From assembly GCA_012839185.1 (NCBI GenBank), contig DUNU01000022.1, forward strand, positions 25,604 through 89,603: a DNA stretch of 64,000 nucleotides. The letters are read 5' to 3'. Each line of letters starts with the position of its first letter. The stretch's first letter is position 1. A program made the translations under genes and the position numbers. This DNA comes from Clostridiales bacterium. GTDB lineage: Bacteria > Bacillota > Clostridia > Oscillospirales > Acutalibacteraceae. Under the pieces are notes generated by a model. That model was not told the origin of the DNA. It worked only from the letters and a program-made list of their open reading frames with translations, and did no database searches. Below are positions 10,431 to 43,001 of this stretch, piece by piece.

Positions 10431-10515
10431 TGGTGCGGATAACAGGGCTTGAACCTGCACACCTCTCGGCACAAGATCCTAAATCTTGCGTGTCTGCCAA
10501 TTCCACCATATCCGC
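10431..10515 (-). tRNA. tRNA-Leu (anticodon UAG), CCA encoded
   Basis: I hand-folded the reverse complement GCGGATATGGTGGAATTGGCAGACACGCAAGATTTAGGATCTTGTGCCGAGAGGTGTGCAGGTTCAAGCCCTGTTATCCGCACCA. It gives a 7-bp acceptor stem, anticodon stem CAAGA/TCTTG with loop TT-TAG-GA, a long variable arm and T-loop TTCAAGC. Confidence 0.88.
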
Positions 10516-13514: not shown

Positions 13515-14060
13515 ATGAATTTTGAAGAGAAAAGAAGAATAGAGAACGATTTATGGCAAGAACATGAGCCGTATATTCGCAAACTTTGTAAATATAAGTT
13601 AGAAAGCGTGCCTGATTGTATTGATGATTGCGTTCAGAATGTTTTTCTGGACTTATCAGAGGCTCTGAATCAAGGGAAAATAATTAAGTATCCGAAGGCT
13701 TGGCTGACTAAGGTTGCTAATAATGAGATTCGGGATATTTACAGCAAAGCGAAAAAAGATGCTGAAAAAATAATTTCTTTTGAATCTCAAAACTTCGATA
13801 ATGCAGATTTAGGAGTGGTATATGATGATCCGTTTTCTGTTGACGATGAGCAAATACTGATGTTAAAAGAAAAAGTACTCAATCGGCTCGATGAAAAAGA
13901 CCGTCAATTACTGAATGACAGATATGTTCTGAATAAAAGCATTGCAGAAATTGCCGAAGAGTATAACACAACTGAGAATAATATTTATCAAAAATTGTTC
14001 AGATTAAAGCAAAAAACGAAAATGATAATCGAAAAAGTCCTTAACGAAAAAAATTTATAA
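13515..14060 (+). CDS. ECF-type (sigma-70 family group 4) RNA polymerase sigma factor
   Basis: 181 aa. It has a region-2-like segment (DCVQNVFLDLSEAL..AWLTKVANNEIRDIY) and a region-4 HTH (LDEKDRQLLNDRYVLNKSIAEIAEEYNTTENNIYQKLFRLKQK). Confidence 0.85.
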   Translation: MNFEEKRRIENDLWQEHEPYIRKLCKYKLESVPDCIDDCVQNVFLDLSEALNQGKIIKYPKAWLTKVANNEIRDIYSKAKKDAEKIISFESQNFDNADLGVVYDDPFSVDDEQILMLKEKVLNRLDEKDRQLLNDRYVLNKSIAEIAEEYNTTENNIYQKLFRLKQKTKMIIEKVLNEKNL

Positions 14061-14064
14061 AAAA

Positions 14065-14100
14065 TTTTTGTAAGAAATGAGAATTATCAAGACTATATAT
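14065..14100 (+). promoter_or_regulatory. Promoter-like module copy 1: TTTTTGTAAGA-N11-TCAAGACTATATAT
   Basis: Repeated with the same 11-nt spacer length and a following G-rich SD at 15534..15569. Confidence 0.45.
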
Positions 14101-14118
14101 GTAGGGGGAGATAGAATT

Positions 14119-14946
14119 ATGATAAACGATAAAGATTTTTTACGCTTTATCAATGACAAGTCTCTTGACGGTTTAACAAAAGAAAGACTTAACACAATAA
14201 TTGATGAAGAGTTAAATAAGCCGGAAGAAGATATGGATACGGCACTTATAGAATATTGTTTAGATACAATAGAAACGCTTAACCAAAACGAACAGGGCGT
14301 TAAAGAAAAGAAAGGAAACGGTGATTCCAATGGTAGATTTATAAAATTCAGGTTAAAAAAGTTTATTGCAGTCGCTGCCGTTGTTGCAGTAATTCTTATA
14401 TGTACGGTTTCAGCATCTGCTGTCATTGACGGTATAAAACTATTTGGCGGTATCGTTGAAATTTATGAGAACGAAATTCGAATCAATTTTACTCAAAGAG
14501 ATGAACAAGCAGATGACTACCAACTTCTTAACACAGAACTTGCTAAAGAACTTGCTGACAAAGGTTTTGACAATGTTTTGTTGCCCGAAGCAATGTTTAG
14601 TGAGAACTTCGAAATCACAAAGAAAGCATATCAGGCTACTGAAGATAACGAAATAAAGCATGTGTCAATAGAGTTATTGATAAAAAAAGACATTGGCATC
14701 TTTATTAAAAAATATGCTGGCATCTTACATATGACCGAGTATAGCAGGGAAGAATATGTTTCTGATGGTCAATTTCCTTACGTAACAAGTGAAGTAAACA
14801 AAATAAAAGTCGGAAATACTACGGTGTATTATTTTGCACAAAACAAAAATACTACAATTACTTATAGAGACGGGTTGAGGATTTATTCTTTTCATATCCC
14901 GATAAGTTTAGATGAAGCATTGGAATTTGCGAAAACAATTAAATAG
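14119..14946 (+). CDS. Putative anti-sigma factor (single-pass membrane protein, DUF4367-like C-terminal domain)
   Basis: Lies immediately downstream of the sigma gene. It has a cytoplasmic N-terminal roughly 90 aa, TM segment FIAVAAVVAVILICTVSASAVI, and a C-terminus ending ..TITYRDGLRIYSFHIPISLDEALEFAKTIK, resembling DUF4367 as I recall it. The ATG at 14119 has SD GGGGGAG. Confidence 0.6.
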   Translation: MINDKDFLRFINDKSLDGLTKERLNTIIDEELNKPEEDMDTALIEYCLDTIETLNQNEQGVKEKKGNGDSNGRFIKFRLKKFIAVAAVVAVILICTVSASAVIDGIKLFGGIVEIYENEIRINFTQRDEQADDYQLLNTELAKELADKGFDNVLLPEAMFSENFEITKKAYQATEDNEIKHVSIELLIKKDIGIFIKKYAGILHMTEYSREEYVSDGQFPYVTSEVNKIKVGNTTVYYFAQNKNTTITYRDGLRIYSFHIPISLDEALEFAKTIK

Positions 14947-14957
14947 GAGTGTTTATA

Positions 14958-15470
14958 ATGAAAAAAATAATTTCGATATTTTTAATCGTACTATTGATGT
15001 TCAGTTTATTCTCAAATGTTGTTCTTGCTCAAGATTTTTATCGGACAAATTCATTTGTCAGCCAAGACGATATTATTGAAGAGGTGTATGGACTGTATAA
15101 TTCAAACAATTATAACGGTACCGGTTCAAGAGCAACAGGTCTGATAACAAAGAATCTTCTTAAATTGACCAAAACGACAAGCAGTTTGAAGATACAAGCA
15201 GAAACATTATGTTCAAGCGATGTTACAAAATGCGGTTTTACCTATGTAAAGTTACAAAGATTGATTAACGGAACATGGACTGATTATACAACTTATTGTT
15301 ATTACGATCAGTATTCTCAATCAAATGGCTTAGTATTTCTCAAAACGATTTATCCTCCTTCGGGTTATAGTTACCGTGTAATTTGCGAACATTATGCGGA
15401 AAAGCCGAAACTTATTTTCTTTAAGGAAACTCAAACGATTTACAATGCAACATCATCCTTGAGTTTCTGA
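14958..15470 (+). CDS. Secreted protein of unknown function
   Basis: Signal peptide MKKIISIFLIVLLMFSLFSNVVLAQD and SD AGGAG. The mature part has five Cys. No recognisable domain. Confidence 0.65.
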   Translation: MKKIISIFLIVLLMFSLFSNVVLAQDFYRTNSFVSQDDIIEEVYGLYNSNNYNGTGSRATGLITKNLLKLTKTTSSLKIQAETLCSSDVTKCGFTYVKLQRLINGTWTDYTTYCYYDQYSQSNGLVFLKTIYPPSGYSYRVICEHYAEKPKLIFFKETQTIYNATSSLSF

Positions 15471-15533
15471 TAAAGAATTAAAATTCTCGAATGAAAAAGT
15501 ATATTTTTATCAAATAAAAATTTTTTCAAAATA

Positions 15534-15569
15534 TTTTTGTAAGATTTCCGATTTTTCAAGACTATATAT
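15534..15569 (+). promoter_or_regulatory. Promoter-like module copy 2: TTTTTGTAAGA-N11-TCAAGACTATATAT
   Basis: Both conserved halves are identical to 14065..14100. It is followed by SD GAGGGAGG and a 9-codon orphan ORF (ATG 15593, MKGVSPMCN*), about 160 nt upstream of the ricin-metzincin gene. Confidence 0.45.
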
Positions 15570-15729
15570 ATGAGGGAGGAAAAAAATAAATTATGAAAGG
15601 CGTGAGTCCGATGTGCAATTAAAACTTTTCTCGAATTTTTCTGCTTTAATCGTAAGACTATTAAATTCAAAAATTAAGTTGTAGAAATTTAAGAGATTTT
15701 GCACACAATTAAGAAAGGAGGATGCAATA

Positions 15730-16692
15730 ATGAGAAAAGCTACAATTTGCGTAATTTTAGTTTTTATTCTTATATTTGTTTCGCCTACCTGTTTTGCATA
15801 CGGACCAACTGAGTTTGAACACGATCATCTGTATTATATACAAAACCAGAATTCAGGCAAGTATTTAACGGTGAATGGGAATAATATTGAGCAAAGATCG
15901 CTTTCTTACAACCAAAATCAGCGATTTTTTGTTCGCTTTATAAAGTCTTCAGATGGATTTGACTATTACTCTTTTATTCCCGACTGTTGCAAGGGGTATA
16001 AGATAGATGTAGAGAATGCTTGGGATATTAACGGTGCAAATATTGGTATATATGGTGATAATACTTACGTGCCTTCAGCACAAAACTTTAGGTTTATATT
16101 AAACAGCAATCTAAGATATCAAATTATGCCAGAAGTTAGCTCAACAAGAGTTTTTGACGTAGCGAATGCAAGCACTTTAGATGGAGCAAACATTGCCCTT
16201 TTTACACGCAGATCAATTAACGATAGTTTAGTAACAGCTCAACAATTTAAATTGTACACAGTTGAATTGAGTGTAATGTCTTATAATTGTGTTGATAGCT
16301 CAAAACATCTTGACTATAGTTGCGAAAGTATGTTTTCTGATTGTGCAGAATTTGCAAAAGATACTTGGAATGGATATAGAGCTGGTGTAGTCAGAAAGTA
16401 TATTCCTATTATAAGACCGAAAGATATAAGTATTATAGGCAAACAAACATTGCCTGCCGGTATTGCTGGAATAACTTACTTTGTAGAAAAGGAAATACAT
16501 ATTAGCATTGCTGTTTGGGATACGCTTACAGGTAATCAAAGAAATAATTTGGTGATTCATGAGATTGGTCATGCTTTAGGAATGGGGCATATTGATGATA
16601 CATCCAATGTTCTGTATTATGCAGTTAATTCAACAATTAGTTTAGAAAGTTCAAATCGGAGTTCTTATGATTTTGCTTATTCTCAATATTAA
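15730..16692 (+). CDS. Secreted ricin-type beta-trefoil lectin / metzincin zinc-metalloprotease fusion
   Basis: Signal peptide ..SPTCFA/YG. Three trefoil sub-repeats end in Q-x-F (NQRFF, QNFRF, QQFKL) with GKYLTV/GANIGIY/GANIALF cores. The C-terminal zinc site HEIGHALGMGH (HExxHxxGxxH) is at 16558..16590. Confidence 0.8.
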   Translation: MRKATICVILVFILIFVSPTCFAYGPTEFEHDHLYYIQNQNSGKYLTVNGNNIEQRSLSYNQNQRFFVRFIKSSDGFDYYSFIPDCCKGYKIDVENAWDINGANIGIYGDNTYVPSAQNFRFILNSNLRYQIMPEVSSTRVFDVANASTLDGANIALFTRRSINDSLVTAQQFKLYTVELSVMSYNCVDSSKHLDYSCESMFSDCAEFAKDTWNGYRAGVVRKYIPIIRPKDISIIGKQTLPAGIAGITYFVEKEIHISIAVWDTLTGNQRNNLVIHEIGHALGMGHIDDTSNVLYYAVNSTISLESSNRSSYDFAYSQY

Positions 16693-16708
16693 AATAGGAG
16701 TGATTAGT

Positions 16709-17365
16709 ATGAAAAAAGTTGGTATTGCCATTATTTCTGTGGTATTGATTTTAGGAATCACTTTGGGCAGTTTTGCTGTTTTAAGGCAAGTTAAAATTAA
16801 AAAATATTCAAAAGAAATATTCCCTATTCCCCAAAACATTGATCTGTTGGAAAAAGAAAAACTTGAAGCCTCATATCTTTTTGACACCGATGACAAGGAA
16901 TTGATGTCGGGAGCATCGCAGTATATAGTTATTGCATATCTCAATAAGATAACCGGAACGAGTTATAAAGATGTTGAAATAGTTAAAGGAGAAGCAAAGG
17001 GAACTCCGTTCACAAATTATACAATGAATATCGTAAAAAATATCAAGGGGAATCTTAAAATTGAAAATGATATTCCTGTCTTGCAGTATGGCGGAGTTTC
17101 CATAGATGGCAAGAAAATGGTTTTTCTTTATCCGTTGCTTGAAGAAAATACGCCTTATGTTCTTTACCTTGATGTCATTGATTCCGATCTTTGTCTGAAT
17201 AAAGCTTATGTCATTCCGGAAGTTGATAGTTTCGAAGAACTTAAGAATGTTTCAGAGACCGACACAAAAATTGATATTATTGAAGAGTGTATCCTTGCGT
17301 ATGAAAATGAGGATCCTAAGTATGCAACTCGAAAAAATGGAAAAAGCCCCTATGATTTAGGTTAA
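16709..17365 (+). CDS. Membrane-anchored or secreted protein of unknown function
   Basis: SD AGGAG and N-terminal hydrophobic segment VGIAIISVVLILGITLGSFAVL. The gene is 16 nt after the metalloprotease stop. Confidence 0.6.
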   Translation: MKKVGIAIISVVLILGITLGSFAVLRQVKIKKYSKEIFPIPQNIDLLEKEKLEASYLFDTDDKELMSGASQYIVIAYLNKITGTSYKDVEIVKGEAKGTPFTNYTMNIVKNIKGNLKIENDIPVLQYGGVSIDGKKMVFLYPLLEENTPYVLYLDVIDSDLCLNKAYVIPEVDSFEELKNVSETDTKIDIIEECILAYENEDPKYATRKNGKSPYDLG

Positions 17366-17435
17366 TGTTTAAGCTGATAGCATATAATGTAACTATGCTG
17401 ATGTAAACATAAATGACTATGGGTAGGTATTTATC

Positions 17436-18347
17436 ATGAAAATCTTGCGTAAAATTATTGGCATTGTACTACTGACAGTTTTCTTAATGACCGTGTTTTC
17501 ATTTTGGTGTTATGGTGTAAACAAAGATGAAAACTATGAACTGCTTTTGGAATATGGTTTCACATCAGATTATCTTGATAACTTAAGTGACGTGTTCATT
17601 GAAAAGATGGCTGATACAATCAGAGAAACGAGTGGGGAAAAACAGGCTAATGATTATTATTACTTGTTGTCCTGCGGCTATCCTAAAGCGTTTTTGGAAT
17701 TGCTGACTGACTCAACTCTGAAAAATATCGTTTCTTCAATAGGAGACAATGAAATTATATCTGTGACTTACACAAACAAAGATCCTGCTTTTAATATGAG
17801 TGACAATTCAAAAGTTGTAATCAAACGTGTTTCCGTCAAAATGAAAGATAAGAAAAGCGATAAAATTGTCGGTGAAACGGTATGCGTATATTGGGAATGG
17901 CTTGACAATAAGCCGTTGATAAGAGAAGAAGATTTTGTTGCAGTAAAATGGAACAGCGAGCTTTTCACATATAACCCGGATTCTTTCTATGCAGAAGATT
18001 ATTGGAAAGAAAACACAACGGATAAGTGGACGGTTGCCGATTCATATACCGTATTGACAAGAGCAACTCAGGAAGCAATCGGTCATTGGACAAAGCTTAA
18101 ATCATCAGGAAACATTGTCGGCGGTGCGATGATTTTCAGTTTGTTATCTAAATCTGAAATAGACAAAAAGACCGATTATACCAATAAGATAACGGTAGAG
18201 TATACTCATCAGTACAGATTGACGAAATTTATAATAATTGTCGTTATTCTTGTTGTAATATTATTAACTGCCGTAATAATTGTATTATCTAAAAAACACA
18301 GAAGAAAAATTCAAAAAACAACTGAAAGTCTTAAAAATAAGGACTGA
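17436..18347 (+). CDS. Exported protein of unknown function with a C-terminal TM anchor
   Basis: N-terminal signal IGIVLLTVFLMTVFSFWCYG. An internal duplicated segment reads LLEYGFTSDYLDNLSDVFIEKM / LLSCGYPKAFLELLTDSTLKNI. C-terminal TM FIIIVVILVVILLTAVIIVL followed by KKHRRK. Confidence 0.6.
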   Translation: MKILRKIIGIVLLTVFLMTVFSFWCYGVNKDENYELLLEYGFTSDYLDNLSDVFIEKMADTIRETSGEKQANDYYYLLSCGYPKAFLELLTDSTLKNIVSSIGDNEIISVTYTNKDPAFNMSDNSKVVIKRVSVKMKDKKSDKIVGETVCVYWEWLDNKPLIREEDFVAVKWNSELFTYNPDSFYAEDYWKENTTDKWTVADSYTVLTRATQEAIGHWTKLKSSGNIVGGAMIFSLLSKSEIDKKTDYTNKITVEYTHQYRLTKFIIIVVILVVILLTAVIIVLSKKHRRKIQKTTESLKNKD

Positions 18348-18452
18348 GTATATCAATAAAGGAAAATTAAAGCATTATTGATTTTTTGATAAAGAAGTAA
18401 ATTTTTCTCGAATATTTCCATTGTTAGATAAAAATAAAGGAATTAAATAAAA

Positions 18453-18884
18453 ATGAAAAAGATAATTGTTCTGTTGACCGTTGTTCTTTGTTTTGCAATG
18501 CTGTCTTCATGCACAACAGGTGAAGAAACGGATAGCTCAACGATGACAACGACGGAGATTAATGCTCCAACCGGACGCGATGACGGACTGCCGCAAAAAG
18601 CAATGATTTTTTATAACGACTGCCTTTATGAAGCCGATCTGTACTTTTTCATGCTTGAAGAAAACGGGGGATATGTTGAAGTTCCTGATGCAAATAAAAA
18701 AGAGGTCTATGAACAGGAACACATTTTGACACCCTGCGGGAAAATAGAGAGCGTAATTGATACTGTGCCGGACAAAAATTTTGTCGGCTACGGAGTAAAA
18801 GAAGGTACACCTATGTACACAGATGAACTTGGTAATCTCTTTATTGAAACAGACGGTATTTTACGGGCATTTGTACTATCTTAA
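18453..18884 (+). CDS. Lipoprotein of unknown function
   Basis: Lipobox LSSC after the signal MKKIIVLLTVVLCFAM. Confidence 0.65.
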   Translation: MKKIIVLLTVVLCFAMLSSCTTGEETDSSTMTTTEINAPTGRDDGLPQKAMIFYNDCLYEADLYFFMLEENGGYVEVPDANKKEVYEQEHILTPCGKIESVIDTVPDKNFVGYGVKEGTPMYTDELGNLFIETDGILRAFVLS

Positions 18885-18905
18885 TTTTGAATATGAGGCA
18901 TAAAC

Positions 18906-19442
18906 ATGAAAAACACAAAGAAAAAACGCAGAATACTAATGTTTCTGTCCGTGATTTTAGCAATTATTTTAATTTCATCTATTACCTTAAGTTTTTATTT
19001 CCTGAGACCATTAAGATATTCCAATGCTGAAATAATAGTTTATAACTTTGATTATCAACCGGCGTTTGACAGTAAGATTCGTCAATATAACGAGAATAGT
19101 CTTGTCAGCTTTAGGAATGAAAATTGCACATTTTCTTCGCGAGACATGAATGATTATTGCAAGGTCAATGTCAGCGTGGATGTATATAACAGAACAGGGA
19201 TAAATGCATTTGTTAATTATATTTATCCGATTACTGACAATGATTTTATTATTTTCGGAATTATTCCCCTTGCCACAATGCAAGCACCCGCAAATACCAT
19301 TTCGGAATGTTACAGTACATTCATCTGCTTAAGGAATGGTAAAACTGATGAAGAAATAATTAACGCAATGTCTGAAATGGATTACAAGATAGTCTTTGGT
19401 AACAGTGTTCTCTGGGAAAATAGTCAGACAATACATTTTTAA
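18906..19442 (+). CDS. Membrane-anchored protein of unknown function
   Basis: Basic N-terminus KKKRR followed by TM ILMFLSVILAIILISSITLSFYF. Confidence 0.55.
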   Translation: MKNTKKKRRILMFLSVILAIILISSITLSFYFLRPLRYSNAEIIVYNFDYQPAFDSKIRQYNENSLVSFRNENCTFSSRDMNDYCKVNVSVDVYNRTGINAFVNYIYPITDNDFIIFGIIPLATMQAPANTISECYSTFICLRNGKTDEEIINAMSEMDYKIVFGNSVLWENSQTIHF

Positions 19443-19542
19443 TTTATTGTAATTTAATTAAAAAGAATTTGTTGTTTATATTATAAAATAAGAAGGTTTT
19501 GAATATAGACGTTAATGCAAATATGAAGGCAGTTTTTCAGAA

Positions 19543-19575
19543 TAAAAAAGCATCTCTCGGTTTTCCCGTGAGATG
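19543..19575 (-). terminator. Rho-independent terminator of the XRE gene
   Basis: CATCTCTCGG-ttttc-CCGTGAGATG (one mismatch), followed on the minus strand by T6. Confidence 0.65.
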
Positions 19576-19606
19576 TATTTATTAGCTATCAAAATACTTT
19601 TCGATA

Positions 19607-19852
19607 TTATTCAGCACCGACAAGCCAAAGCATTGAAACGCCGAGAATTTCAGAAATGGCAAGAAGCTCTCTGTCACTTACACTTCGAAGCTGTCCTTCA
19701 ATTTTTGAAAGAGCAGATGAATTAAGGTCAATACCTTTGAGTTGAAGTTGCATAAGCAAGTCTTTTTGTTTCATGTTGAGAGCAGTGCGACGCTGTTCTA
19801 TCCGAATGCCGCAGATGTTTTTATCTCCGATTTCCTGTTTTCTTAAACGCAT
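19607..19852 (-). CDS. XRE-family helix-turn-helix transcriptional regulator
   Basis: HTH_3-like segment IRIEQRRTALNMKQKDLLMQLQ..SALSKIEG in an 81-aa protein. Confidence 0.75.
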   Translation of the reverse strand: MRLRKQEIGDKNICGIRIEQRRTALNMKQKDLLMQLQLKGIDLNSSALSKIEGQLRSVSDRELLAISEILGVSMLWLVGAE

Positions 19853-20008
19853 ATAAAAACTCCTGTTTTTTTTAATAATATCACATTTTTTTCTTTATAT
19901 CAATATAAAAAAATCAATTTTTATACAAATTCTTACTTTATATACAAAAATCGAACTTTTGTCTATTATCTTTTTTCTCTTTTGGCAATTAAGTTTTAGA
20001 AAATGTTC

Positions 20009-33499: not shown

Positions 33500-33562
33500 A
33501 CACTTGTCATGTATGGAGATTTATCTCAATATGTCGAAAAAATGAAAAGAGGGTTTATTGAT

Positions 33563-34249
33563 ATGAAAATCACTAAAACTATTCTCGCTTTTGTAGTAGC
33601 ACTTTCTCTTGCTCTTACCATGAGCATTTCTGCTTTTGCAACTTCTTCCGCAAGCATTTCAGCTCCCGCAAAGGTAACTGAAGGCGAAACATTCACAGTT
33701 AAAGTTGCTGTTTCCAATGCAGCTTCCGGTGACCTTCCTCTTACATACTCCACCGAGTATCTTGAGGTTGTTGATACTGAAAGCCTTCTTGGCGGCGAAG
33801 TCGGTTCCATTGCTGAATCTGCAGGTGGCAAAGTTTATGCAGGTTTTGCTGTCGCTGACAATGTCACTGCTGATGTTTACAGCGTAACATTCAAGGCTCT
33901 CAGTGCTGTTGATGGTGTTGAAGGTGAAGCTAAACTTTCTGTTGACGGTTATGTAATTGATGCTGACGACAATCAGACTGATGTTAAGTCAGAATTTGTT
34001 GTTGATATCGTAGAGGCTGAAGAAGACACAACCAAGGCTGATGAAGACACAACCAAGGCTGATGAAGACACAACCAAGGCTGATGAAGACACAACCAAGG
34101 CTGATGAAGACACAACAAAGAAGCCCGATGACGGAACAAAGGCAACTGATAAAACTCCCAAAACCAGTACAGATGTTTCTCTTTCAACCGTAGCAGGTCT
34201 TTCTGTTCTTGCAGCAGCAGCATTTGTTCTCACAAAGAAGAGAAAGTAA
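33563..34249 (+). CDS. Cell-surface protein: signal peptide, cohesin-like domain, EDTTKAD repeats, C-terminal hydrophobic anchor
   Basis: Signal ILAFVVALSLALTMSISAFA. The roughly 125-aa beta-rich domain (KVTEGETFTVKVAVSNAASGDL..YSTEYLEVVD) resembles cohesin modules. The tail is VAGLSVLAAAAFVLTKKRK. ATG at 33563 has SD AGAGGG. Confidence 0.6.
   Translation: MKITKTILAFVVALSLALTMSISAFATSSASISAPAKVTEGETFTVKVAVSNAASGDLPLTYSTEYLEVVDTESLLGGEVGSIAESAGGKVYAGFAVADNVTADVYSVTFKALSAVDGVEGEAKLSVDGYVIDADDNQTDVKSEFVVDIVEAEEDTTKADEDTTKADEDTTKADEDTTKADEDTTKKPDDGTKATDKTPKTSTDVSLSTVAGLSVLAAAAFVLTKKRK
34022..34126 (+). repeat. Coding tandem repeat, 21 bp x 4 perfect copies plus 1 degenerate copy
   Basis: gaagacacaaccaaggctgat (EDTTKAD) repeats head to tail. 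The fifth copy has diverged (gaagacacaacaaagaagccc). Confidence 0.95.
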
Positions 34250-34271
34250 TTAGTTTTATTAAACAATAAAA

Positions 34272-34296
34272 GGCGAGATTAAACTCTCGTCTTTTT
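34272..34296. terminator. Bidirectional rho-independent terminator between convergent genes
   Basis: GGCGAGA-ttaaac-TCTCGTC followed by T5. An A-run precedes it, which gives a T-run on the minus strand. Confidence 0.7.
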
Positions 34297-34393: not shown

Positions 34394-34978
34394 TTATTTA
34401 ATATCGGTTATCTTTTCCCCGTTAACATAAAGTCCGTCAAATTTAAAGTGATTCAGAAAACCTTTAATTACAACCGTAACATATGCAGGTGAACCGTCAA
34501 ACTCAAGTTTTGTGTCATTATCTAAATCGTAAATCCCGATTGTAAATCCGTCTTCATAAGAGAAATCAATATATTTTTTTGTAACATTTTTATTATCATC
34601 GGGAAACTCATTATAAAACTTTTTTGCGTCATTTATCGGGAGCTTCAGGCTAATTGTACCAACGTAATCACCAACGTCCATCCAACCGTCATAATCCCCG
34701 CAAATATCGATATTCAAATAATCGTACTTATTATTCATTTTAATATCCGAAGACAAAGTATAAAATTGAGCTTCCATAGATATAATATCTTCATTATATG
34801 CAGTCCAATTGTAAGCTATTTTATTGACTTTATATTCATATTTTATACCGAAATTTTCACAGCAGAAGTCTATAAGAGTGGGGTTTGCTATGATGATACC
34901 CGCAATAATAAGTTGGATAACAAGGGCCAAAATTATTTTTTTAAGCAATAATATCGCCTTCTTTCTCCGAAAGGTCAT
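34394..34978 (-). CDS. Membrane-anchored paralog P1 of an unassigned family
   Basis: Shares the N-terminal TM (LKKIILALVIQLIIAGIIIA) and the C-terminal block LEFDGSPAYVTVVIKGFL..FDGLYVNGEKI with P2 and P3. The start homologous to P2/P3 is a TTG at 34948; an upstream in-frame ATG lies at 34978. Confidence 0.7.
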   Translation of the reverse strand: MTFRRKKAILLLKKIILALVIQLIIAGIIIANPTLIDFCCENFGIKYEYKVNKIAYNWTAYNEDIISMEAQFYTLSSDIKMNNKYDYLNIDICGDYDGWMDVGDYVGTISLKLPINDAKKFYNEFPDDNKNVTKKYIDFSYEDGFTIGIYDLDNDTKLEFDGSPAYVTVVIKGFLNHFKFDGLYVNGEKITDIK

Positions 34979-35025
34979 TGTTAATCTTTTTATAACGTGT
35001 TTGCCTATTGAATATTGTTAATATA

Positions 35026-35583
35026 TTATTTGTGTTTGATCTGGGTGATTTTTTCTCCGTCAACATAAAGTCCGTCAAATTTAAGGTGATCCAGAAAACC
35101 TTGAATTACAACCGTCACATATGCAGGTGAGCCGTCAAACTCAAGAATGGAATCGGAATTTGAATCGTCAATAGAAATTGTAAAACGGTTAGTATAATAA
35201 GAGTAATTTATATGCTCTTTTCTGATATTCGGGTTGTTGTCGGGAAACTGCTCGTAGAACTTCTCCGCATCATCAATCGGTATAGTAAGGTAAAGTTCGC
35301 CGAGATTATCGTTAATGCTTATATAGTCATCATAGTTATTGTTGATACTGGCACCGGATTCGTACCACCGTGTAAGTATTATTAAATCTGAAGCATCGAA
35401 TTCAACATTAAGTTTTATTATACTATTGTTATATAATTTCCAACTGTAAACAATGTTTTTTACTTTACATTCATATATAGTACCACAATTCTCATGGTAA
35501 TAATCACCAAGTGTGGGACTTGCGATGATAATTCCGGCAATAACGAGTTGGATTACAAGAGCGACAATTATTTTTTTAAGCAT
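35026..35583 (-). CDS. Membrane-anchored paralog P2 of an unassigned family
   Basis: ATG at 35583 is preceded by SD GAAGGTG. N-terminus MLKKIIVALVIQLVIAGIIIASPT, C-terminal block LEFDGSPAYVTVVIQGFLDHLKFDGLYVDGEKITQIK. Confidence 0.75.
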   Translation of the reverse strand: MLKKIIVALVIQLVIAGIIIASPTLGDYYHENCGTIYECKVKNIVYSWKLYNNSIIKLNVEFDASDLIILTRWYESGASINNNYDDYISINDNLGELYLTIPIDDAEKFYEQFPDNNPNIRKEHINYSYYTNRFTISIDDSNSDSILEFDGSPAYVTVVIQGFLDHLKFDGLYVDGEKITQIKHK

Positions 35584-35673
35584 TGTATTCACCTTCTTTT
35601 TACTCTGTTCCCATAGGTGATTTCATTTTAATGAGTTTGTTTGTTGAGCTTTCTTTAAGCTGTTATTCAGTTT

Positions 35674-36237
35674 TTATGGGTTTTTTGGTTTGATCTGCGT
35701 TATTTTTTCTCCGTCAACATAAAGTCCGTTAAATTCAATGCGATCCAAGAATACTCCGATAACAACCGTAACGTCTGCGGGCGAGCCGTCAAACTCAAGT
35801 TTTGAATCATGATTTGCATCATCGATAAATATTCTAAATCCGTATTTCTCGTCGTAGTAGTATTCTATATCCTCTTTTTCAATATTTGAATTGTCGTCGG
35901 GGAATTGAGAATAAAACTTCTCCGCGTCATCAATCGGGAGATTAAGGCTAAGAGTGCCGCTATTGTCATATAGGCTTATATAACCCTCATATTTATTGTA
36001 GAAAGCGGAACGTCGATAGTCATACCGTGTGATTTCTACATCTGAGAAGTCAAATTCGGCACTAAGCTGTATAATGTCTTTGTTATACTCATCCCAAAAA
36101 TATGATATGTTCGTAACTTTGCACTCATATTCAGTGCCGAAATTCTCTAATACGTAATCTGTAATTGTGGGGCTGGCGATGATAATTCCGGCAATAATGA
36201 GTTGGATTACAAGAGCAACCGCTATTTTTTTAAGCAT
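35674..36237 (-). CDS. Membrane-anchored paralog P3 of an unassigned family
   Basis: The ATG at 36237 (SD GGAAGGTG) overlaps the stop of the upstream HTH-membrane gene by 8 nt (AATGCTTAA). Same N- and C-terminal blocks as P2. Confidence 0.75.
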   Translation of the reverse strand: MLKKIAVALVIQLIIAGIIIASPTITDYVLENFGTEYECKVTNISYFWDEYNKDIIQLSAEFDFSDVEITRYDYRRSAFYNKYEGYISLYDNSGTLSLNLPIDDAEKFYSQFPDDNSNIEKEDIEYYYDEKYGFRIFIDDANHDSKLEFDGSPADVTVVIGVFLDRIEFNGLYVDGEKITQIKPKNP

Positions 36238-37708
36238 TGTTATCACCTTCCCTGTCGGAAAGTTCTTCGGGAATTTCTTTATCGGCTGTTTTTTTATTGA
36301 ATTTTATGAACATAATTCGATTTGCAAGCAGGAGTGTAATTCCGACAACGATCATGATAACTCCCTGTGTGACAAATTCCAAATCAGTTCCGACTACAAG
36401 GACAATTACAAGAACTGCAATCATAATGAGACCGAAATTTATCGTACTCATTTTTGTTTTTAACGCACCTTCAACAATGAACGTAATTGCGGAAATTCCG
36501 CATAATGCAAATATAAGTACTTGATTGTCTTCAATATTGGATGGAAAGAAGGTAATAAAGGTGTTCAGCAGAATGGTTGTAGCAATCAATATCCAGGATA
36601 CGCCGAATTTCTTAAGGTTTTTACGAGCCTTAATTACTCCGCCCAAGATAAGAAGCAATGAAATTAGGGTTATAAAGACGGAGCCATAAACAGCAGTTTC
36701 TGTGTTGCCGGGATAGAAATAGGGATTTCCATCAATTAAAGCGAAAACAGTCGTTATTGTTATTGATGCAGCCAAGCCGAGTCGGGAGAAAAAAGCACAA
36801 TCAACTTCTTTTCTTTCGTCTTTATCAATAAGCATCAATGCCGCGAAAATTGAGCCGGTTATAATAAAAATTGCAAATCCATCTAAGCAATAGTTAAGTT
36901 CTGTACTGATAAAATAAATGACGGCGGTGAAATTCAAAAATATTGTCGCAAATGTAATAGCATAGAAGTGCTTTTTTGCACCGAATTGTCCGCATTTTTT
37001 TGCCAATAATACACCGACAAATATTAAAATACCGAAGAGCACCGAGTATATTATTCCGCCTTGCAATGAGGAATAGGAGAGGAGAGACAGGAATGAATAG
37101 GATAAGCCGCAGAAATAGAATGTCATCGGCAAAATTCCGTGTGTAATCAGGATTACGGGAATTACGGCAATCGTGTCGAGAACCAATGCTCCCTCAAAGC
37201 CTAATTGTGCGTAATATATTGAATTGAGAAAAGCATTGGTGACGATGATGCCGATACTCCAGACAACAGCACCGATTTCATTCCAGACAGCACCGGTTTT
37301 CTTTTTAGATACGAAAATTTCAAAGCCGACACCGACCAAAAGAGGAATGAAGGCAAGTACGGTTTTGATAAGTCCGTTTATTGTGTCCCAAAGCGAGTAG
37401 AATAATAGTGCGATACCGCCGGCAATTAATAGTGTTCCCAATATGCTGAATATTGTAATAAAAAGTTTTTTATTATCTTTTTTCGGCGGCTCTAATCCGA
37501 TTTTGTTGTTTTTGCCGTAAATTAGCTCTTCAATGCTGATTTCAAAGATTTCTGCTATTTTTTCAAGCATCTGATAGTCGGGTTGAGTTCGTGAAGTTTC
37601 CCAACTTGAAATGGTTTGTCTGGTAACCTGAAGATTTTGAGCCAATATATCTTGAGTGATACCTTTTTCTGTTCTGAATTTTTTAATGTTTGAGGATATT
37701 TTTATCAT
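36230..37708 (-). CDS. XRE-type HTH domain fused to a polytopic (roughly 10-12 TM) membrane domain
   Basis: N-terminus IKKFRTEKGITQDILAQNLQVTRQTISSWETSRTQPDYQMLEKIAEIF matches HTH_3. The remaining roughly 410 aa are almost entirely hydrophobic helices. SD GGAGGAGG. Confidence 0.8.
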   Translation of the reverse strand: MIKISSNIKKFRTEKGITQDILAQNLQVTRQTISSWETSRTQPDYQMLEKIAEIFEISIEELIYGKNNKIGLEPPKKDNKKLFITIFSILGTLLIAGGIALLFYSLWDTINGLIKTVLAFIPLLVGVGFEIFVSKKKTGAVWNEIGAVVWSIGIIVTNAFLNSIYYAQLGFEGALVLDTIAVIPVILITHGILPMTFYFCGLSYSFLSLLSYSSLQGGIIYSVLFGILIFVGVLLAKKCGQFGAKKHFYAITFATIFLNFTAVIYFISTELNYCLDGFAIFIITGSIFAALMLIDKDERKEVDCAFFSRLGLAASITITTVFALIDGNPYFYPGNTETAVYGSVFITLISLLLILGGVIKARKNLKKFGVSWILIATTILLNTFITFFPSNIEDNQVLIFALCGISAITFIVEGALKTKMSTINFGLIMIAVLVIVLVVGTDLEFVTQGVIMIVVGITLLLANRIMFIKFNKKTADKEIPEELSDREGDNNA

Positions 37709-37864
37709 AAAACCTCCTCCTTTCGACCAAAGTATATCACTTTTTATATAAAATGTCCAGCAATATTTTGTTGCAATGGGTATTTTTATATAATAATATG
37801 GTGTTTTGCAAAATTTATGCTATATTAAGTGTTTGGAAGTATGATAAATTTTCTAATTGTTTGC

Positions 37865-37893
37865 TTGACAAATTGTTTTCAATATAGTATTAT
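37865..37893 (+). promoter_or_regulatory. Sigma-A-type promoter
   Basis: TTGACA-17 nt-TATTAT. Confidence 0.6.
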
Positions 37894-37925
37894 TATAAGG
37901 TATGCTTACATTATGGAGGAATGTC

Positions 37926-39737
37926 ATGAAAATTTGTGCTGAATGTAAATTTAACGTAGAATACGATCAATCTGTATGCCCTATTTGTGGCTGCGATCGT
38001 TTTGAAGAAACTGAAACGGAAGATATTGCAGAGGATAAAGTTGTTACTGAAACAACCGAAGAAGGAACAAGCTCTTTCGGTACACTTGTTGAAGAAGTTA
38101 AAAATCCCGCTCCTGCTCCCGTTGACGAGAATGAATTAAAGATAAAGAAAAAGAACAAGCAACTTACAGTTATTATCGCTGTATTGCTTGTTATTATCGC
38201 AGGTTTTGTCGGCATTATCGGTGCTGCATTCTATTCTTATTGGAGAGACCAAAATCCCAAGGTAGAAAAGACACCCGAATATGTACAGACAGCTCAGAAG
38301 AAAAAGAACTTCCCGATGCACAATTTCGGTGAAGTTGCCGGCAAAATCAATGAAACCGAAGTTTCTATGGACATGGTTGAGCTTTGCTATATTGATCAGC
38401 TCAATTCAATGACATATTTAAATTCCATGTACGAAAGCAATTACGGTGAGGGTTACGGTATGTTATTTACCGGCTTTGATCCCGATATCAATCCCGCTTT
38501 GCAGACAACAACAAACCAAGACGGAGATACGGTTTCTTTCGATGATTACTTTATGGATTGTGCCGAAAGCGAAATTGAGCGTGTTGTTTTCCTTTATAAT
38601 AAAGGTGTAGAGGCAGAATATGAATTAAGCGATGAACAGATAGAAAAAATCAACACTGCAGTCGATGCCGCAGTAAAGGGTACCGACGGATTTACTGTTT
38701 CCACCTATTCTTATCTGACCGAGGAAAAGGGTTACAGTGCAAAAGATGCAAAAGTTATTTTAGCTCAGTATTATTACCTTATTTATTTTGCTGATAATTA
38801 CACCGTTTTCGCTCAGGATGAACTTGATGCCCAAGTAAGCGATGATGAAATTGCTGCTTATATTTCTGAAAATGAGGAAGATTTCAAGGTTGCCGACATC
38901 TATATTCTTTCAAAAGATACCAATGATGTAGAAGATGTTGCAGAATATATCGCAGGTCTTAAGGAATCTGTAGTTGATTTAGAGAGCTTTAAGGCAGTTG
39001 CTGTTTCTGATTTTGATATTCCCACAGATGAAATTGAAGATAAGTGTTTGATGACAAGTGTTGCTCGTGAAGTTATTTCAGCTAATGTTGACGAAGAGGC
39101 AGCAGAGTGGATGTTCAGTGATGAGCGTAAGCCCGGCGACTGTTTCGTAGTCGATTTAACGACTTTTGGCGGTATCTATGTTTTCTGTATTTCTGAAAAA
39201 GCCTATCTTTCAAATGAGAAGCTTCCCTCAATCCGTCTTATCCCGATTTATGATGAGACAGGTGAACAGACTATTGAAGACATTAAGGCAAAGGCTGACG
39301 AATGTGTGGCGAACTTTAATGACGGAGACAAGACAGAGGACAGTTTTGTAAAATTGGTATCCGAATATTCAAGTGATCCTAATTTGGTTGAGGATGGCGG
39401 TCTTTTTGAGGCTATCGAAAGAAACAGCTTCATTAAATCAATAGAGACTTGGGCTTTTGACGAAAGCCGTCAGGCAGGCGATATTGATGTGTTGGAGCTT
39501 AATGCAAACGGTTATGTTGTAGCTTACTATGTAAAGCTGGGCAGATCTTCTGCAGAAAATGCTGCTGTTGAATCCCTTACCGCAGAAAAGAAAACTGCTT
39601 TGACTGAAGGCTGGGCAGAGGAATATAAAGATACATTTGAGTTTGAAAAAGAACTTCGCAAGAGCACTCAGACTGCACTTCTTGCCTATCTTGAAAAGAT
39701 AATGAAGTTTGGAGAAGAAGGCACAACCGCTGCATAA
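37926..39737 (+). CDS. Membrane protein: N-terminal zinc ribbon, single TM, extracytoplasmic PrsA/parvulin-like peptidyl-prolyl isomerase domain
   Basis: CAEC..x13..CPICG ribbon and TM LTVIIAVLLVIIAGFVGIIGAAFYSYW. The C-terminal segment SSDPNLVEDGGLFEAIERNSFIKSIETWAFDESRQAGDIDVLELNANGYVVAYYV resembles the parvulin core. Confidence 0.6.
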   Translation: MKICAECKFNVEYDQSVCPICGCDRFEETETEDIAEDKVVTETTEEGTSSFGTLVEEVKNPAPAPVDENELKIKKKNKQLTVIIAVLLVIIAGFVGIIGAAFYSYWRDQNPKVEKTPEYVQTAQKKKNFPMHNFGEVAGKINETEVSMDMVELCYIDQLNSMTYLNSMYESNYGEGYGMLFTGFDPDINPALQTTTNQDGDTVSFDDYFMDCAESEIERVVFLYNKGVEAEYELSDEQIEKINTAVDAAVKGTDGFTVSTYSYLTEEKGYSAKDAKVILAQYYYLIYFADNYTVFAQDELDAQVSDDEIAAYISENEEDFKVADIYILSKDTNDVEDVAEYIAGLKESVVDLESFKAVAVSDFDIPTDEIEDKCLMTSVAREVISANVDEEAAEWMFSDERKPGDCFVVDLTTFGGIYVFCISEKAYLSNEKLPSIRLIPIYDETGEQTIEDIKAKADECVANFNDGDKTEDSFVKLVSEYSSDPNLVEDGGLFEAIERNSFIKSIETWAFDESRQAGDIDVLELNANGYVVAYYVKLGRSSAENAAVESLTAEKKTALTEGWAEEYKDTFEFEKELRKSTQTALLAYLEKIMKFGEEGTTAA

Positions 39738-40444: not shown

Positions 40445-41575
40445 ATGTTTGATGCTAATTTAACTTCACGCAGCTATGCAAAAATAGACCTTAATGCGAT
40501 TTGCCACAATTTTGACGAGCTTAAATCTCGATTAAGCCCGAATGTTCTGACAATGGCAATTGTTAAAGCGGATGCCTATTCTCACGGAGTGGTACAAGTT
40601 ACAAAAACCTTGTCTGATAAGGTGGATTATTTTGGTGTTGCGGTTGTTGAAGAAGCGATTGAGCTAAGAGAAAACGGCATAGATAAGCCGATTCTTATAT
40701 TGTCTCATACCTTACCGCATCAATATCCATTGCTTTTAGAATATGACATTGTTCAGACGGTTTCGTCTTATGAGAGTGCAAGACTTATTTCCGAAACAGC
40801 TCAAAAAGAGGGCAAGACGGCTAAAATTCATATTGCACTTGATACCGGAATGAACCGACTTGGCTTTGAGGCAACGGATGAAAGCGTTGAGCAAATAAGG
40901 GAAATTGCAAAATTGCCGAATGTGTATATCGAAGGGCTTTTCAGTCATTATGCCTGTGCAGATGCAAGCGACAAAACAGCGGCAAATGAGCAGACGGCGA
41001 AATTTAAAGAATTTATTGCAAAACTTGAGACTGTGGGAGTAAATATTCCGATAAAACACATATGCAATTCCGCCGGTATTATTGACCTTGATGAACATTT
41101 TGATATGGTGCGAATGGGTATTGCTTTATATGGAATGTATCCTTCCGAGACAGTTAACAAAGCTGCTGTAAATCTTGTTCCCGCAATGGAGATTGTTTCG
41201 CATATTGTTCATATTCATACAGTCCCGAAAGGTACTCCCGTCGGTTACGGGTATAGCTTTATAACCGAGAGAGAGACAAAAATCGCCACAATCGGTATTG
41301 GATATGCCGATGGATATTCAAGAAGTTTTTCCAATAAAGGATATGTTTTAATTAATGGTAACCGTGCAAATGTCATTGGCAGAGTATGTATGGACTTGTG
41401 TACGGTAGATGTAACTGATATTGATGATGCGGAAATAGGTTCTCATGTTATCATAATGGGAAAAAGCGGTAACGATGAGATTTCCGCTGAAATGCTTGGT
41501 GAGCTTTCCGGTAGTTTTAATTATGAAGTGATTTGCGGCTACAAAAAGAGGGTCGCAAGAGTGTATGTCGATTAG
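40445..41575 (+). CDS. alr: Alanine racemase
   Basis: PLP-lysine motif AIVKADAYSHG, plus GIALYG and the YGY..F region. Confidence 0.93.
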   Translation: MFDANLTSRSYAKIDLNAICHNFDELKSRLSPNVLTMAIVKADAYSHGVVQVTKTLSDKVDYFGVAVVEEAIELRENGIDKPILILSHTLPHQYPLLLEYDIVQTVSSYESARLISETAQKEGKTAKIHIALDTGMNRLGFEATDESVEQIREIAKLPNVYIEGLFSHYACADASDKTAANEQTAKFKEFIAKLETVGVNIPIKHICNSAGIIDLDEHFDMVRMGIALYGMYPSETVNKAAVNLVPAMEIVSHIVHIHTVPKGTPVGYGYSFITERETKIATIGIGYADGYSRSFSNKGYVLINGNRANVIGRVCMDLCTVDVTDIDDAEIGSHVIIMGKSGNDEISAEMLGELSGSFNYEVICGYKKRVARVYVD

Positions 41576-41579
41576 AGTC

Positions 41580-43001
41580 ATGAGAAGATTTTTAACCATA
41601 GTTGTTGCGTTATCAATGCTTGTCGGGGTATTACCTGCATCCAATGCAGCAGGGGTATTTCAGGAATATCTCGTTGAAAATGAAAACGGTGTTCCGATTT
41701 ATTTTTCGGACAATACCGATTCTGTGATTATGACTTATGCTCCGAAAGGTACAATTTTGGGTGCTACTGCTGCAAATTTAGAGTTTATCAAAACAAGTTA
41801 TGACGGATATATCGGTTGGGCATTGATTGAAGATTTGACGAAATTGGACAATTCAAATGACGTAGGAGAAATTTCAGGAATTGAGATTACGCAATTGCCC
41901 GACAAGACGGAATACTACGAAGATGAAATGCTGGAAACTGCCGGTATGGTTGTGTCCGCCAAATATAAAAACGGCTTATTAAAGGAGATTAAAGGATATA
42001 CCGTTCTTGCTCCGCCGATGAATACAAGCGGGTATTCTACCGTAACAGTATTGTATAAAGGTTTCGAAACAAGTTTTGATGTTTGGGTAGCTGTTCTTCC
42101 CATCGAAAAGATAGAAGTTACAAAACTACCCTCCAAATTATCATACAAGCAAGGCTCACCGCTTGATTTTTCAGATATGGAAGTTACTGCAACCTTGACC
42201 GACAAGACTACTCGCAAGGTTACAAACTATAAGATTATGAATTATGATCCCGATTTGGTCGGAGTTCAACAGGTGCGGATTGTCTATAAAACAGTATATT
42301 GCAATCTTCCTGTCGAGGTTATTAAGCGAGAATTAGTCGGTGTTCGGCTCGATGTAGCCCCGCGAATTAAGACATATTACGGCACAAATTTTTCGATTGA
42401 TTTAAGCGGTCTTAAACTCATGGCTTTATATGATAACGGCGATGAGGAGAAAGTATTTCCTGATTCGGCAGTATGCAAACATGCAATCACCGTCGGTACA
42501 AACACGGTTATTTTGAGTTACGGCGGATTTACCGTACAGTATGACATCGAAGTCGAGCAGCGTATGCCGAAAGGTCTTTCTGTTTCTCCTCCTGCAAAAC
42601 TCAGTTACGAGGTTGGTGAGGAAGTAGATTATTCGGGACTTATCGTATATCTTGATTTTAATGACGGCTCAAAAACACCGATTGATGATTATAATATTAT
42701 TACTGAGTTTGATAATACGAAAATAGGCACGCAAAATATTACGGTTGAATACGAAGGTATGACTGCATATTTTACATTGACCGTCCAGAATATTTTTCCG
42801 TACGGAGATGCCAACGGTGACGGCAAAGTTAATGTAAATGATGCAAGATTGGTTCTTCGGTTTGCATTGGGTTTGGAAAGTTGGAGCAAAGGTATCGATT
42901 ATTGTGATGTTAACGGTGATTTTGATGTTACGATTATGGATGCACGACTTATTTTGCAACGAGCATTGGGACTTATTCCGGCATTCCCGATTGAACGATA
43001 G
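41580..43001 (+). CDS. Secreted dockerin-containing protein with an SH3b-like domain and four Ig-like (Big_3-type) repeats
   Basis: Signal FLTIVVALSMLVGVLPASNA. Four repeats of the form L/P.K..Y..G...D.SG(L/M).V.A.Y.(N/D)G. C-terminal type I dockerin duplication GDANGDGKVNVNDARLVLRFALGL / CDVNGDFDVTIMDARLILQRALGL. Confidence 0.8.
   Translation: MRRFLTIVVALSMLVGVLPASNAAGVFQEYLVENENGVPIYFSDNTDSVIMTYAPKGTILGATAANLEFIKTSYDGYIGWALIEDLTKLDNSNDVGEISGIEITQLPDKTEYYEDEMLETAGMVVSAKYKNGLLKEIKGYTVLAPPMNTSGYSTVTVLYKGFETSFDVWVAVLPIEKIEVTKLPSKLSYKQGSPLDFSDMEVTATLTDKTTRKVTNYKIMNYDPDLVGVQQVRIVYKTVYCNLPVEVIKRELVGVRLDVAPRIKTYYGTNFSIDLSGLKLMALYDNGDEEKVFPDSAVCKHAITVGTNTVILSYGGFTVQYDIEVEQRMPKGLSVSPPAKLSYEVGEEVDYSGLIVYLDFNDGSKTPIDDYNIITEFDNTKIGTQNITVEYEGMTAYFTLTVQNIFPYGDANGDGKVNVNDARLVLRFALGLESWSKGIDYCDVNGDFDVTIMDARLILQRALGLIPAFPIER

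Follow-up and report, generated by a model that had tools for sequence, protein, structure and literature searches.

Organization of the operon

A 64,000-nucleotide (nt) stretch of DNA from a Clostridiales bacterium of the Acutalibacteraceae (contig DUNU01000022.1 of assembly GCA_012839185.1), called the window below, was analyzed for an operon on its minus strand at positions 34394-37708. The operon consists of the gene for a 492-amino-acid (aa) regulator followed head to tail by three paralogous genes, P3, P2 and P1 (Table 1). For a protein identical to the regulator, from a Clostridiales metagenome-assembled genome (MAG), NCBI gives the name "DUF2157 domain-containing protein". An earlier reading of this DNA, made without database searches and referred to as the original prediction, had proposed a membrane-tethered one-component transcription factor, ToxR-like in logic, with three paralogous proteins as its ligands, modulators or outputs.

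All four genes are bracketed by a promoter-like site and an intrinsic terminator. The predicted operon promoter agreed with the consensus in 10 of 12 positions and carried the TG motif (consensus scan), and its position was conserved in the alignment of homologue promoters. Scanning for terminators yielded none between the four genes, and promoter-like matches within the operon were no more frequent than in shuffled sequence. The operon is the sole minus-strand block inside a 44-kb run of plus-strand genes and is slightly AT-richer than its flanks (34.5-36% vs 39-40% GC). No regulatory RNA was found in the operon region by an Rfam scan.

The 8-nt overlap between the regulator stop and the P3 start, noted in the original prediction, was confirmed. 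The 3′ end of the regulator gene reads ...GAT AAC AAT GCT TAA, in which the ATG of P3 is embedded, and the Shine-Dalgarno (SD) sequence of P3, GAAGGTG, also lies within the 3′ end of the regulator gene; judged from its sequence, the overlap is a translational coupling junction. The P2 start shows the same arrangement, GAAGGTG-N7-ATG. The duplication of this SD claimed in the original prediction thus holds before P3 and P2 but not before P1, where GAAGGCG is found. In P1, a TTG codon in the arrangement GAAGGCG-N7-TTG aligns with the P2 and P3 starts, the ATG lying ten codons upstream; in a near-identical P1 variant from the database (P0003), the start corresponds to this TTG in the alignment. 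Since approximately 20 nt 5′ of each P start could be aligned among the three paralogues, the duplication unit took in the 3′ end of the regulator gene.

Table 1. Features of the operon and of its flanks, with positions in the window
Feature	Position	Strand	Description and basis
Bidirectional intrinsic terminator	34268-34295	both	11-bp stem and T run on each strand (terminator scan); common to the convergent gene 33509-34249
P1	34394-34978	-	194 aa from ATG 34978, or 184 aa from TTG 34948; 55-57% identity to P3
P2	35026-35583	-	185 aa; open reading frame (ORF); paralogue, 66% identity to P3; own copy of SD GAAGGTG
P3	35674-36237	-	187 aa from ATG; ORF; orphan P family, family hidden Markov model (HMM) E 1e-37
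Regulator/P3 junction	36230-36237	-	8-nt overlap ATGCTTAA of regulator stop and P3 ATG; sequence
Regulator gene	36230-37708	-	492 aa; ORF; HTH_3, DUF2157 and 10 further transmembrane (TM) helices; SD AGGAGGAGG 5′ of start
TM helices 5-14	36299-37141	-	residues 190-470; hydropathy, AlphaFold, conservation
DUF2157 region	37142-37480	-	residues 77-189, TM helices 1-4; PF09925
Cytoplasmic XRE/Cro-type helix-turn-helix (HTH) domain	37511-37708	-	residues 1-66; recognition helix TRQTISSWE and juxtamembrane EELIYG (60-65)
Predicted operon promoter, sigma-70-type	37731-37759	-	-35 TGGACA (37754-37759), 17-nt spacer, TG-extended -10 TATACT (37731-37736)
Palindromic candidate operator, 15 bp	37760-37774		minus-strand GCAACA-AAA-TATTGC; one mismatch to GCAACANNNTGTTGC

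Regulator and P proteins

The canonical XRE HTH that had been placed in the first ~65 residues of the regulator was recovered as a Pfam HTH_3 match at residues 8-62 (E 2.9e-13; 50.1 bits vs a cut-off of 23 bits). In a Foldseek search of the PDB, the HTH part of the AlphaFold model matched SinR (3zkc), P22 c2 (3jxb), 434 Cro, DdrO (6rnz) and ImmR with template modelling scores (TM-scores) of 0.85-0.9 and root-mean-square deviations (rmsd) of 1.1-1.3 Å, and the SinR and P22 c2 domains superposed on it at an rmsd of ~1.2 Å come from DNA-bound structures. By its score above the sequence cut-off and its five-helix Cro/C1 fold, the regulator belongs to the HTH_3 XRE/Cro-C1 class. The Pfam scan returned XRE-type HTH families only, and neither Trans_reg_C nor DUF4115. 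An identity as RodZ (HTH_25, a single TM helix and DUF4115) was ruled out, as HTH_3 was the best HTH model, DUF4115 was absent and 14 TM helices were found.

Hydropathy and the positive-inside rule gave approximately 14 TM helices, and the same 14 were present in the AlphaFold model, instead of the 10-12 counted originally. By the positive-inside rule, the cytoplasmic side holds all the Lys/Arg-rich loops (135-144, 237-249, 360-369 and 416-421) as well as the C-terminal tail; all outside loops were no longer than 15 residues (hydropathy). The model had a predicted local distance difference test score (pLDDT) of 70.8 overall, ~90 for the HTH and <50 for residues 67-77. The view that the TM domain lacks a family had to be revised: residues 77-189 matched PF09925 (DUF2157) with 37.2 bits against a gathering score of 32.4, and DUF2157 was matched in 7/7 homologues (best E 7.4e-15). 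For residues 190-470, no Pfam or Foldseek family match was obtained. Beyond the HTH, Foldseek gave no match of the regulator to the PDB, the best non-HTH entry being PepT (probability 0.23, TM-score 0.13); the Pfam scan returned no transporter family, and hhalign between segments of the 14-TM domain detected no internal or inverted repeats (probabilities <16%). DUF4401 was also considered as a hidden identity of the distal TM region and was dismissed, as hmmscan found no match in 7 regulators.

The P proteins are 184-194 aa long and show 53-66% pairwise identity; as originally described, their N-terminal anchor, an ENxG..YExKV segment and a C-terminal block are invariant or nearly so. P3, the P protein submitted to Foldseek, consists of an N-terminal TM anchor with a conserved Gln and an extracytoplasmic beta-rich domain of ~160 aa. 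Its AlphaFold model contained a helix at residues 2-33 followed by approximately ten strands and one short helix, and was of moderate confidence (pLDDT 64.8, predicted TM-score 0.58). Because of the basic N-terminus (MLKK) and the single hydrophobic helix, P is predicted to be a bitopic protein in N-in/C-out orientation.

In agreement with the original statement that the paralogues fall outside known families, no match to the P family was found in Pfam, NCBIfam, PADLOC or PHROGs, nor by its profile among PDB sequences. Foldseek gave no significant neighbour of the P3 model in the PDB or BFVD (best PDB E 0.22, TM-score <0.2), and a substrate-binding protein (SBP) fold was matched neither by Foldseek nor by the PDB profile search. 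Only the paralogues were recovered when a profile of P1-P3 was run against 5.8 billion proteins (word-indexed search) and, exhaustively with HMMER, against 1.84 billion representatives. Three extra profile matches (P0013-P0015) were cadherin-like or RTX repeat proteins and were discarded as compositional artefacts. GDYXXLXY (PF14345), rejected already in the original prediction, gave no hmmscan match at E<=10, whether the query was P1-P3, one of 34 diverse members of the P family or the consensus of that family. A DUF4179 match (E 0.08) was restricted to the TM helix and was dismissed, as was a PADLOC Unk_05 match (E 0.004), also confined to the TM helix; other PADLOC matches were to the HTH only, and the PADLOC defence models yielded no credible match to any non-HTH part. 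Hence the original proposal has not been overtaken by a characterized family: the TM part matches only the uncharacterized DUF2157 and P matches none.

Conservation was very uneven along both proteins. Mean pairwise identity over 42 non-redundant loci was 64% for the HTH, 38% for the DUF2157 part and 22% for the remaining TM helices of the regulator; for P it was 30% in the anchor and 20% in the ectodomain. The recognition helix (T/S)RQ(T/A)(I/V)S.WE was invariant across homologues. Further invariant or nearly invariant residues of the regulator were EELIYG (60-65), W107, P122, E144, W150, G414, N424, G426, G456 and N463, of which N424 and N463 are 100% conserved and located in the last two TM helices. 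In the P anchor, Q12 was 97% conserved. Among P1-P3, the anchor and C-terminal blocks contained many synonymous differences (of the anchor codons in P3 vs P1, 11 were identical, 10 differed synonymously and 6 non-synonymously). Changes in the middle part of the ectodomain were mostly non-synonymous. Because of these many synonymous differences at the conserved ends, the latter are kept by selection and not by recent gene conversion.

Distribution of the gene pair and its candidate operator

Relatives were collected by scanning 185,579 species genomes with an alignment of the TM part, resulting in 124 relatives, for which 80 loci were retrieved. These loci belonged mostly to Acutalibacteraceae, Oscillospiraceae, "Candidatus Fimenecus" or unclassified Clostridia MAGs, and the sample names that state a source indicate gut, faeces or rumen. 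Full-length homologues of the regulator exist at ~30% identity. In each of the first four contexts inspected, the gene directly downstream overlapped that of the regulator and encoded 182-230 aa without a Pfam match. Over 84 loci with downstream DNA, the first gene downstream of HTH-DUF2157 belonged to the P family in 82 (HMM iterated from P1-P3, E 1e-20 to 1e-49), and the same HMM found no match among the second or third downstream proteins; an N-terminal hydrophobic helix was present in all downstream P proteins. Conversely, an HTH_3-DUF2157 gene stood immediately upstream of 6/6 P-family proteins found by profile search. Co-occurrence elsewhere, on which the original prediction depended, is therefore near-obligate in both directions, and the gene pair recurs far beyond chance. 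In most of the 84 loci the junction GGAGG-N6-8-ATGNNTAA was conserved, and with it the regulator C-terminus ...N-A.

A single P copy was found in 89 of 90 P-containing loci, and three copies only in the window. The ancestral module is a single P gene; thus, the HTH-TM/P pair of the original prediction recurs, but its three-copy state is peculiar to the window genome. Two loci, L070 (2934-4416) and L073 (3814-5305), from RGIG4597 and SIG577 MAGs, contained a regulator without P and instead a gene for a TspO/MBR-like membrane protein of 159 aa; their operator is the variant GCCACA-N3-TGTAGAGC, and they may represent a lineage in which the regulator works alone. In one Logan contig (L095:1071-2511), the HTH (73 aa) and the DUF2157 part (391 aa) were encoded by separate ORFs upstream of a normal P, due either to a natural split, a frameshift or an assembly error.

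Genes around the pair vary by clade (TraX and a small 4-TM protein, DUF2238, or a GtrA-like protein), and since the neighbours differ, the conserved unit is the regulator-P pair. In one subclade (L006, 2735-3889; L014, L021, L026, L031, L032, L038 and L043), the next gene, overlapping the pair by 1-4 nt or set off by a short gap, encodes a membrane protein of the TraX family (254 aa), and in most of these loci one for a small multi-pass membrane protein of 115-124 aa follows it; this arrangement may be an extended operon. In another (L089, 3694-5133; L091, L093 and L097), a DUF2238 membrane protein (398-488 aa where Pfam-annotated) is encoded ~110-220 nt 3′ of P, within the gene order DUF1846 / 157-aa protein / regulator / P / DUF2238 / P-type ATPase. 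For L019, L048, L050, L054, L063 and L081, DUF2238 was assumed from the size (480-494 aa) and position of the next gene. A tblastn search of 72,556 plasmids and 50,697 phages returned no homologue, and an origin from a mobile element was dismissed on this ground. Two P-first scans of JGI metagenome contigs gave no confirmed relative.

The regulator upstream regions share the motif TTGCAACA-N3-TGTTGC followed by GTGAC(T/A). A recognizable variant of the palindrome GCAACA-N3-TGTTGC was the best match in 79/79 upstream regions long enough to analyze, with the left half-site GCAACA present in 67 of them. At most two mismatches to GCAACANNNTGTTGC were counted in 36/42 non-redundant upstream regions, vs 0.16 expected from shuffles. 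Several variants alter both half-sites symmetrically, e.g. GCTACA-TAT-TGTAGC, and the palindrome accompanies the regulator gene across differing neighbourhoods. The conserved palindrome and the invariant recognition helix together argue for real DNA binding by the HTH; covariation between the two was uninformative because both are too invariant. The original idea of a membrane-tethered one-component transcription factor gains independent support from this site, present at every analyzable promoter.

Within the window, the 22-nt family motif had a single match, at the operon promoter, and one further loose match to the 15-nt core was at chance level. Related loci, 334 kb in total, contained 16 sites with at most one mismatch; 12 of these were located at the regulator's own promoter, and none of the remaining four precedes a gene start.

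The window operator abuts the -35 hexamer, its centre being ~-43 from the predicted transcription start. Counted at loci with a good predicted promoter, the gap between operator and -35 was exactly 0 in 15 loci including the window (centre ~-43) and 21-22 bp in 12 loci (~-65). Both positions are upstream of the core promoter and two helical turns apart. Activator sites of class II and class I, known from CRP-type and lambda cI activation, have such a geometry, which is not that of a repressor site. As the operator sits upstream of the -35 element, at ~-43 or ~-65, positive autoregulation is the most likely mode of action.

In the neighbourhood, the convergent gene sharing the terminator (33509-34249, plus strand) encodes 246 aa with a signal-like N-terminus and a C-terminal hydrophobic segment ending in KKRK, and contains five tandem 21-nt repeats (7 aa, EDTTKAD) at 34014-34120; the product is probably a cell-surface protein. 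The product of the divergent neighbour (37902-39737, plus strand; 611 aa) combines a zinc-ribbon (CxxC...CxxC) at its N-terminus with a single TM helix and a large extracytoplasmic domain, and the gene has a near-consensus promoter (TTGACA-17-TATTAT at 37865-37893). Its co-regulation is not obvious because the operator lies ~90 nt upstream of its -35 hexamer. A secreted protein of 478 aa (41565-43001, plus strand) ends in a dockerin-like duplicated motif (GDANGDGKVNVNDARLVLR ... DVNGDFDVTIMDARLILQ), which suggests a cellulosome-type organism of the Ruminococcaceae/Oscillospirales. The GC content dips to 31-34% at positions 14001-20000 (vs ~40% elsewhere in the window), a segment that may stem from horizontal transfer. 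Rfam matched nothing in the window except a single tRNA gene (10434-10515, minus strand).

Proposed mechanism, alternatives and comparison with known systems

The module is probably, if only by a modest measure, an autoregulated membrane-embedded signalling cassette in which the partner P supplies the extracellular input. The regulator would reside in the membrane with its N-terminal HTH and C-terminal tail in the cytoplasm and with ~14 TM helices between them, leaving almost no exposed loops. A dimer of the HTH would bind GCAACA-N3-TGTTGC next to the -35 element of its own promoter and, once bound, activate its own operon, giving positive feedback. Through the ATGNNTAA stop/start overlap, P would be made in fixed proportion to the regulator. 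The TM helix of P, with its near-invariant Gln, would probably dock into the polytopic domain with its invariant intramembrane Asn residues, and the fast-evolving beta-rich ectodomain would serve as the extracellular sensing surface that the regulator lacks. The three P copies of the window are most likely alternative sensor modules, which would compete for one regulator and widen the range of inputs.

Several points weigh against this cassette model. P is not strictly required, since L070 and L073 lack a P gene. The choice of activation over repression follows from the position of the site alone. Neither a lipocalin-like fold nor that of any other sensor was seen in the P3 model, which is of moderate confidence as given above. 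In principle, P might begin with a cleaved signal peptide (IIA/S) in place of an anchor. Finally, the operon itself was the sole target found in the window and the 334 kb of related loci, and this does not account for a biological output.

Four alternatives were considered and are given in order of weight. The first, unlikely but the best placed of them, takes the P proteins as the output: the polytopic regulator would itself sense a membrane or envelope cue, like BcrR (see below) and as proposed for LiaF-type TM domains, and would induce surface effectors for envelope protection, adhesion or exclusion, the three copies providing dose or diversity. It fits the observations that the only operator found drives the P-encoding operon and that two loci have the regulator alone, as well as the unification of DUF2157 with the LiaI-LiaF-TM envelope-stress domain (PMC11237479); the fast evolution of the ectodomain would likewise suit a surface protein under diversifying pressure. 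However, the conserved overlap ties P one to one to a regulator normally low in amount, which is typical of complex partners and not of effectors, and the anchor is more conserved than the ectodomain, its intramembrane Gln suggesting a specific helix-helix contact. Moreover, no Toastrack, PspC or PspA genes were present among the neighbours of the examined loci. From the original choice between ligand, modulator and output, stoichiometric translational coupling thus favours P as partner or modulator, and output is disfavoured.

Gating by proteolysis is a good deal less plausible still. P would shield the regulator from membrane proteases in a TcpH/TcpP-like manner, or the HTH, freed by cleavage at EELIYG, would act as a soluble factor; EELIYG is the invariant linker between HTH and TM1 and precedes the low-pLDDT residues 67-77. 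TcpP/TcpH and ToxR/ToxS provide a precedent (PMC10269533, PMC11323476), but no protease gene was conserved in the neighbourhood of the examined loci, P would find no extracytoplasmic domain to shield on the regulator, and EELIYG might just as well form the final helix of the HTH fold or serve in dimer contact.

It is very improbable that the module is a trigger transporter, with the polytopic domain as transporter or permease, P as accessory or substrate-binding subunit and the HTH coupling flux to transcription. The absence of a transporter fold (Foldseek), of repeat symmetry (hhalign), of a Pfam transporter family and of an SBP fold in P outweighs the transporter-like number of 14 TM helices and the resemblance of an anchored extracytoplasmic partner to Gram-positive substrate-binding proteins.

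RodZ, whose architecture is HTH_25 with DUF4115, is a membrane-anchored protein with an XRE-like HTH that binds protein instead of DNA. A RodZ-like role, with the HTH as protein-interaction module of a structural membrane complex and the palindrome belonging to another regulator, can hardly be upheld: HTH_25+DUF4115 proteins are counted among the hits in a survey of transmembrane transcription regulators (PMC10269533), but the domain here is HTH_3 with DNA-bound repressors as closest structures, and the dyad-symmetric motif is found with the gene in every genome, whatever genes lie nearby, its nearly invariant half-site matching the invariant recognition helix.

What is understood so far about partnered transmembrane regulators comes almost entirely from Vibrio and the enterics, in which virulence is under their control. 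The module described here, a cassette from uncultured Clostridia of gut and rumen (Acutalibacteraceae/Oscillospiraceae), follows the same logic without being related to them, and adds an orphan partner family, the candidate operator GCAACA-N3-TGTTGC, two discrete promoter geometries and conserved intramembrane residues. The operator can be used for regulon prediction in complete genomes, and the compact sensor/promoter pair could become a genetic tool for poorly tractable anaerobes. The three-paralogue state of the window is a natural experiment in which sensor modules diversify while docking surfaces are kept.

The comparison with known systems begins with the co-component systems VtrA/VtrC, ToxR/ToxS, TcpP/TcpH and PsaE/PsaF, in which the gene for a membrane-bound transcription factor overlaps that for an anchored sensor that evolves fast (Kinch et al. 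2022, PMC9214523). Like these, the module is a self-contained two-gene cassette, in which a same-strand, overlapping downstream gene encodes an N-terminally anchored, beta-rich and fast-evolving partner. It differs in its DNA-binding domain, which is XRE/Cro-type instead of a CadC/OmpR-type winged helix, and in its ~14 TM helices without periplasmic domain, whereas the co-component regulators have one helix and a periplasmic domain that completes the barrel of the partner. The P3 model, at a pLDDT of 64.8, had no lipocalin-like match, and neither VtrC nor ToxS occurred among the Foldseek PDB matches. The hosts are Gram-positive gut and rumen Clostridia as opposed to enteric Proteobacteria, and no sequence homology was found in any part. 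A more far-reaching proposal, tentative and rather less than probable, is that of a Gram-positive co-component class, independent of the proteobacterial VtrA/VtrC superfamily and spread over >80 gut and rumen Oscillospirales species, in which a loop-less polytopic XRE regulator would take an interchangeable bitopic sensor docked via Gln/Asn; here, three paralogues would compete as modular plug-in inputs.

A second relative in logic is BcrR of Enterococcus faecalis, which has four TM helices and no partner and controls the adjacent bcrABD ABC transporter operon from a separate transcription unit. Its N-terminal HTH reportedly sits directly on the membrane sensor domain with little exposed loop, and it is said to be a membrane-located activator. 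As a one-component sensor of bacitracin, BcrR is of the XRE type and bound to the membrane (PMC3968067, PMC10269533). Both are Firmicute proteins with an N-terminal XRE-type HTH fused to a loop-poor integral membrane domain; unlike BcrR, the regulator has ~14 helices, a translationally coupled partner and a candidate autoregulatory site, and neither an ABC transporter nor UppP was consistently adjacent in the window and the examined homologue loci.

The usual company of a canonical DUF2157 gene consists of DUF4401 and GDYXXLXY genes, but hmmscan detected neither family in the regulator-P module. Residues 77-189 of the regulator match DUF2157, itself without known function, which has been unified with the LiaI-LiaF-TM domain, a homology for which one paper is the sole source (PMC11237479). 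The HTH fusion, the ten additional helices and the P partner set the regulator apart from the described DUF2157 or Lia contexts, and Toastrack, PspC, PspA and LiaRS were all absent from the Pfam families of neighbours in the loci examined.

The regulator shares with transmembrane transcription regulators the combination of a DNA-binding domain and TM segments in one protein; HTH_3 makes up ~9% of those catalogued in the survey (Demey et al. 2023, PMC10269533). DUF2157 does not occur in its text or in the available supplementary files, and the architecture, the partner and the operator are not described there. The literature searched contained nothing on the HTH-DUF2157 + P architecture, some passing mentions of DUF2157 or GDYXXLXY and none of DUF4401. 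The module can therefore be called undescribed as regards its architecture and the P family, but its concept is already anticipated by known transmembrane regulators, a similar logic being known from the co-component systems and BcrR. It is closest in logic to the co-component systems and also close to BcrR, and, because of its DNA-binding domain, its helix number, the lack of a lipocalin fold and the lack of an adjacent transporter, it is a member of neither family. By analogy, it is best read as a Gram-positive counterpart of the co-component regulators, built from unrelated parts.

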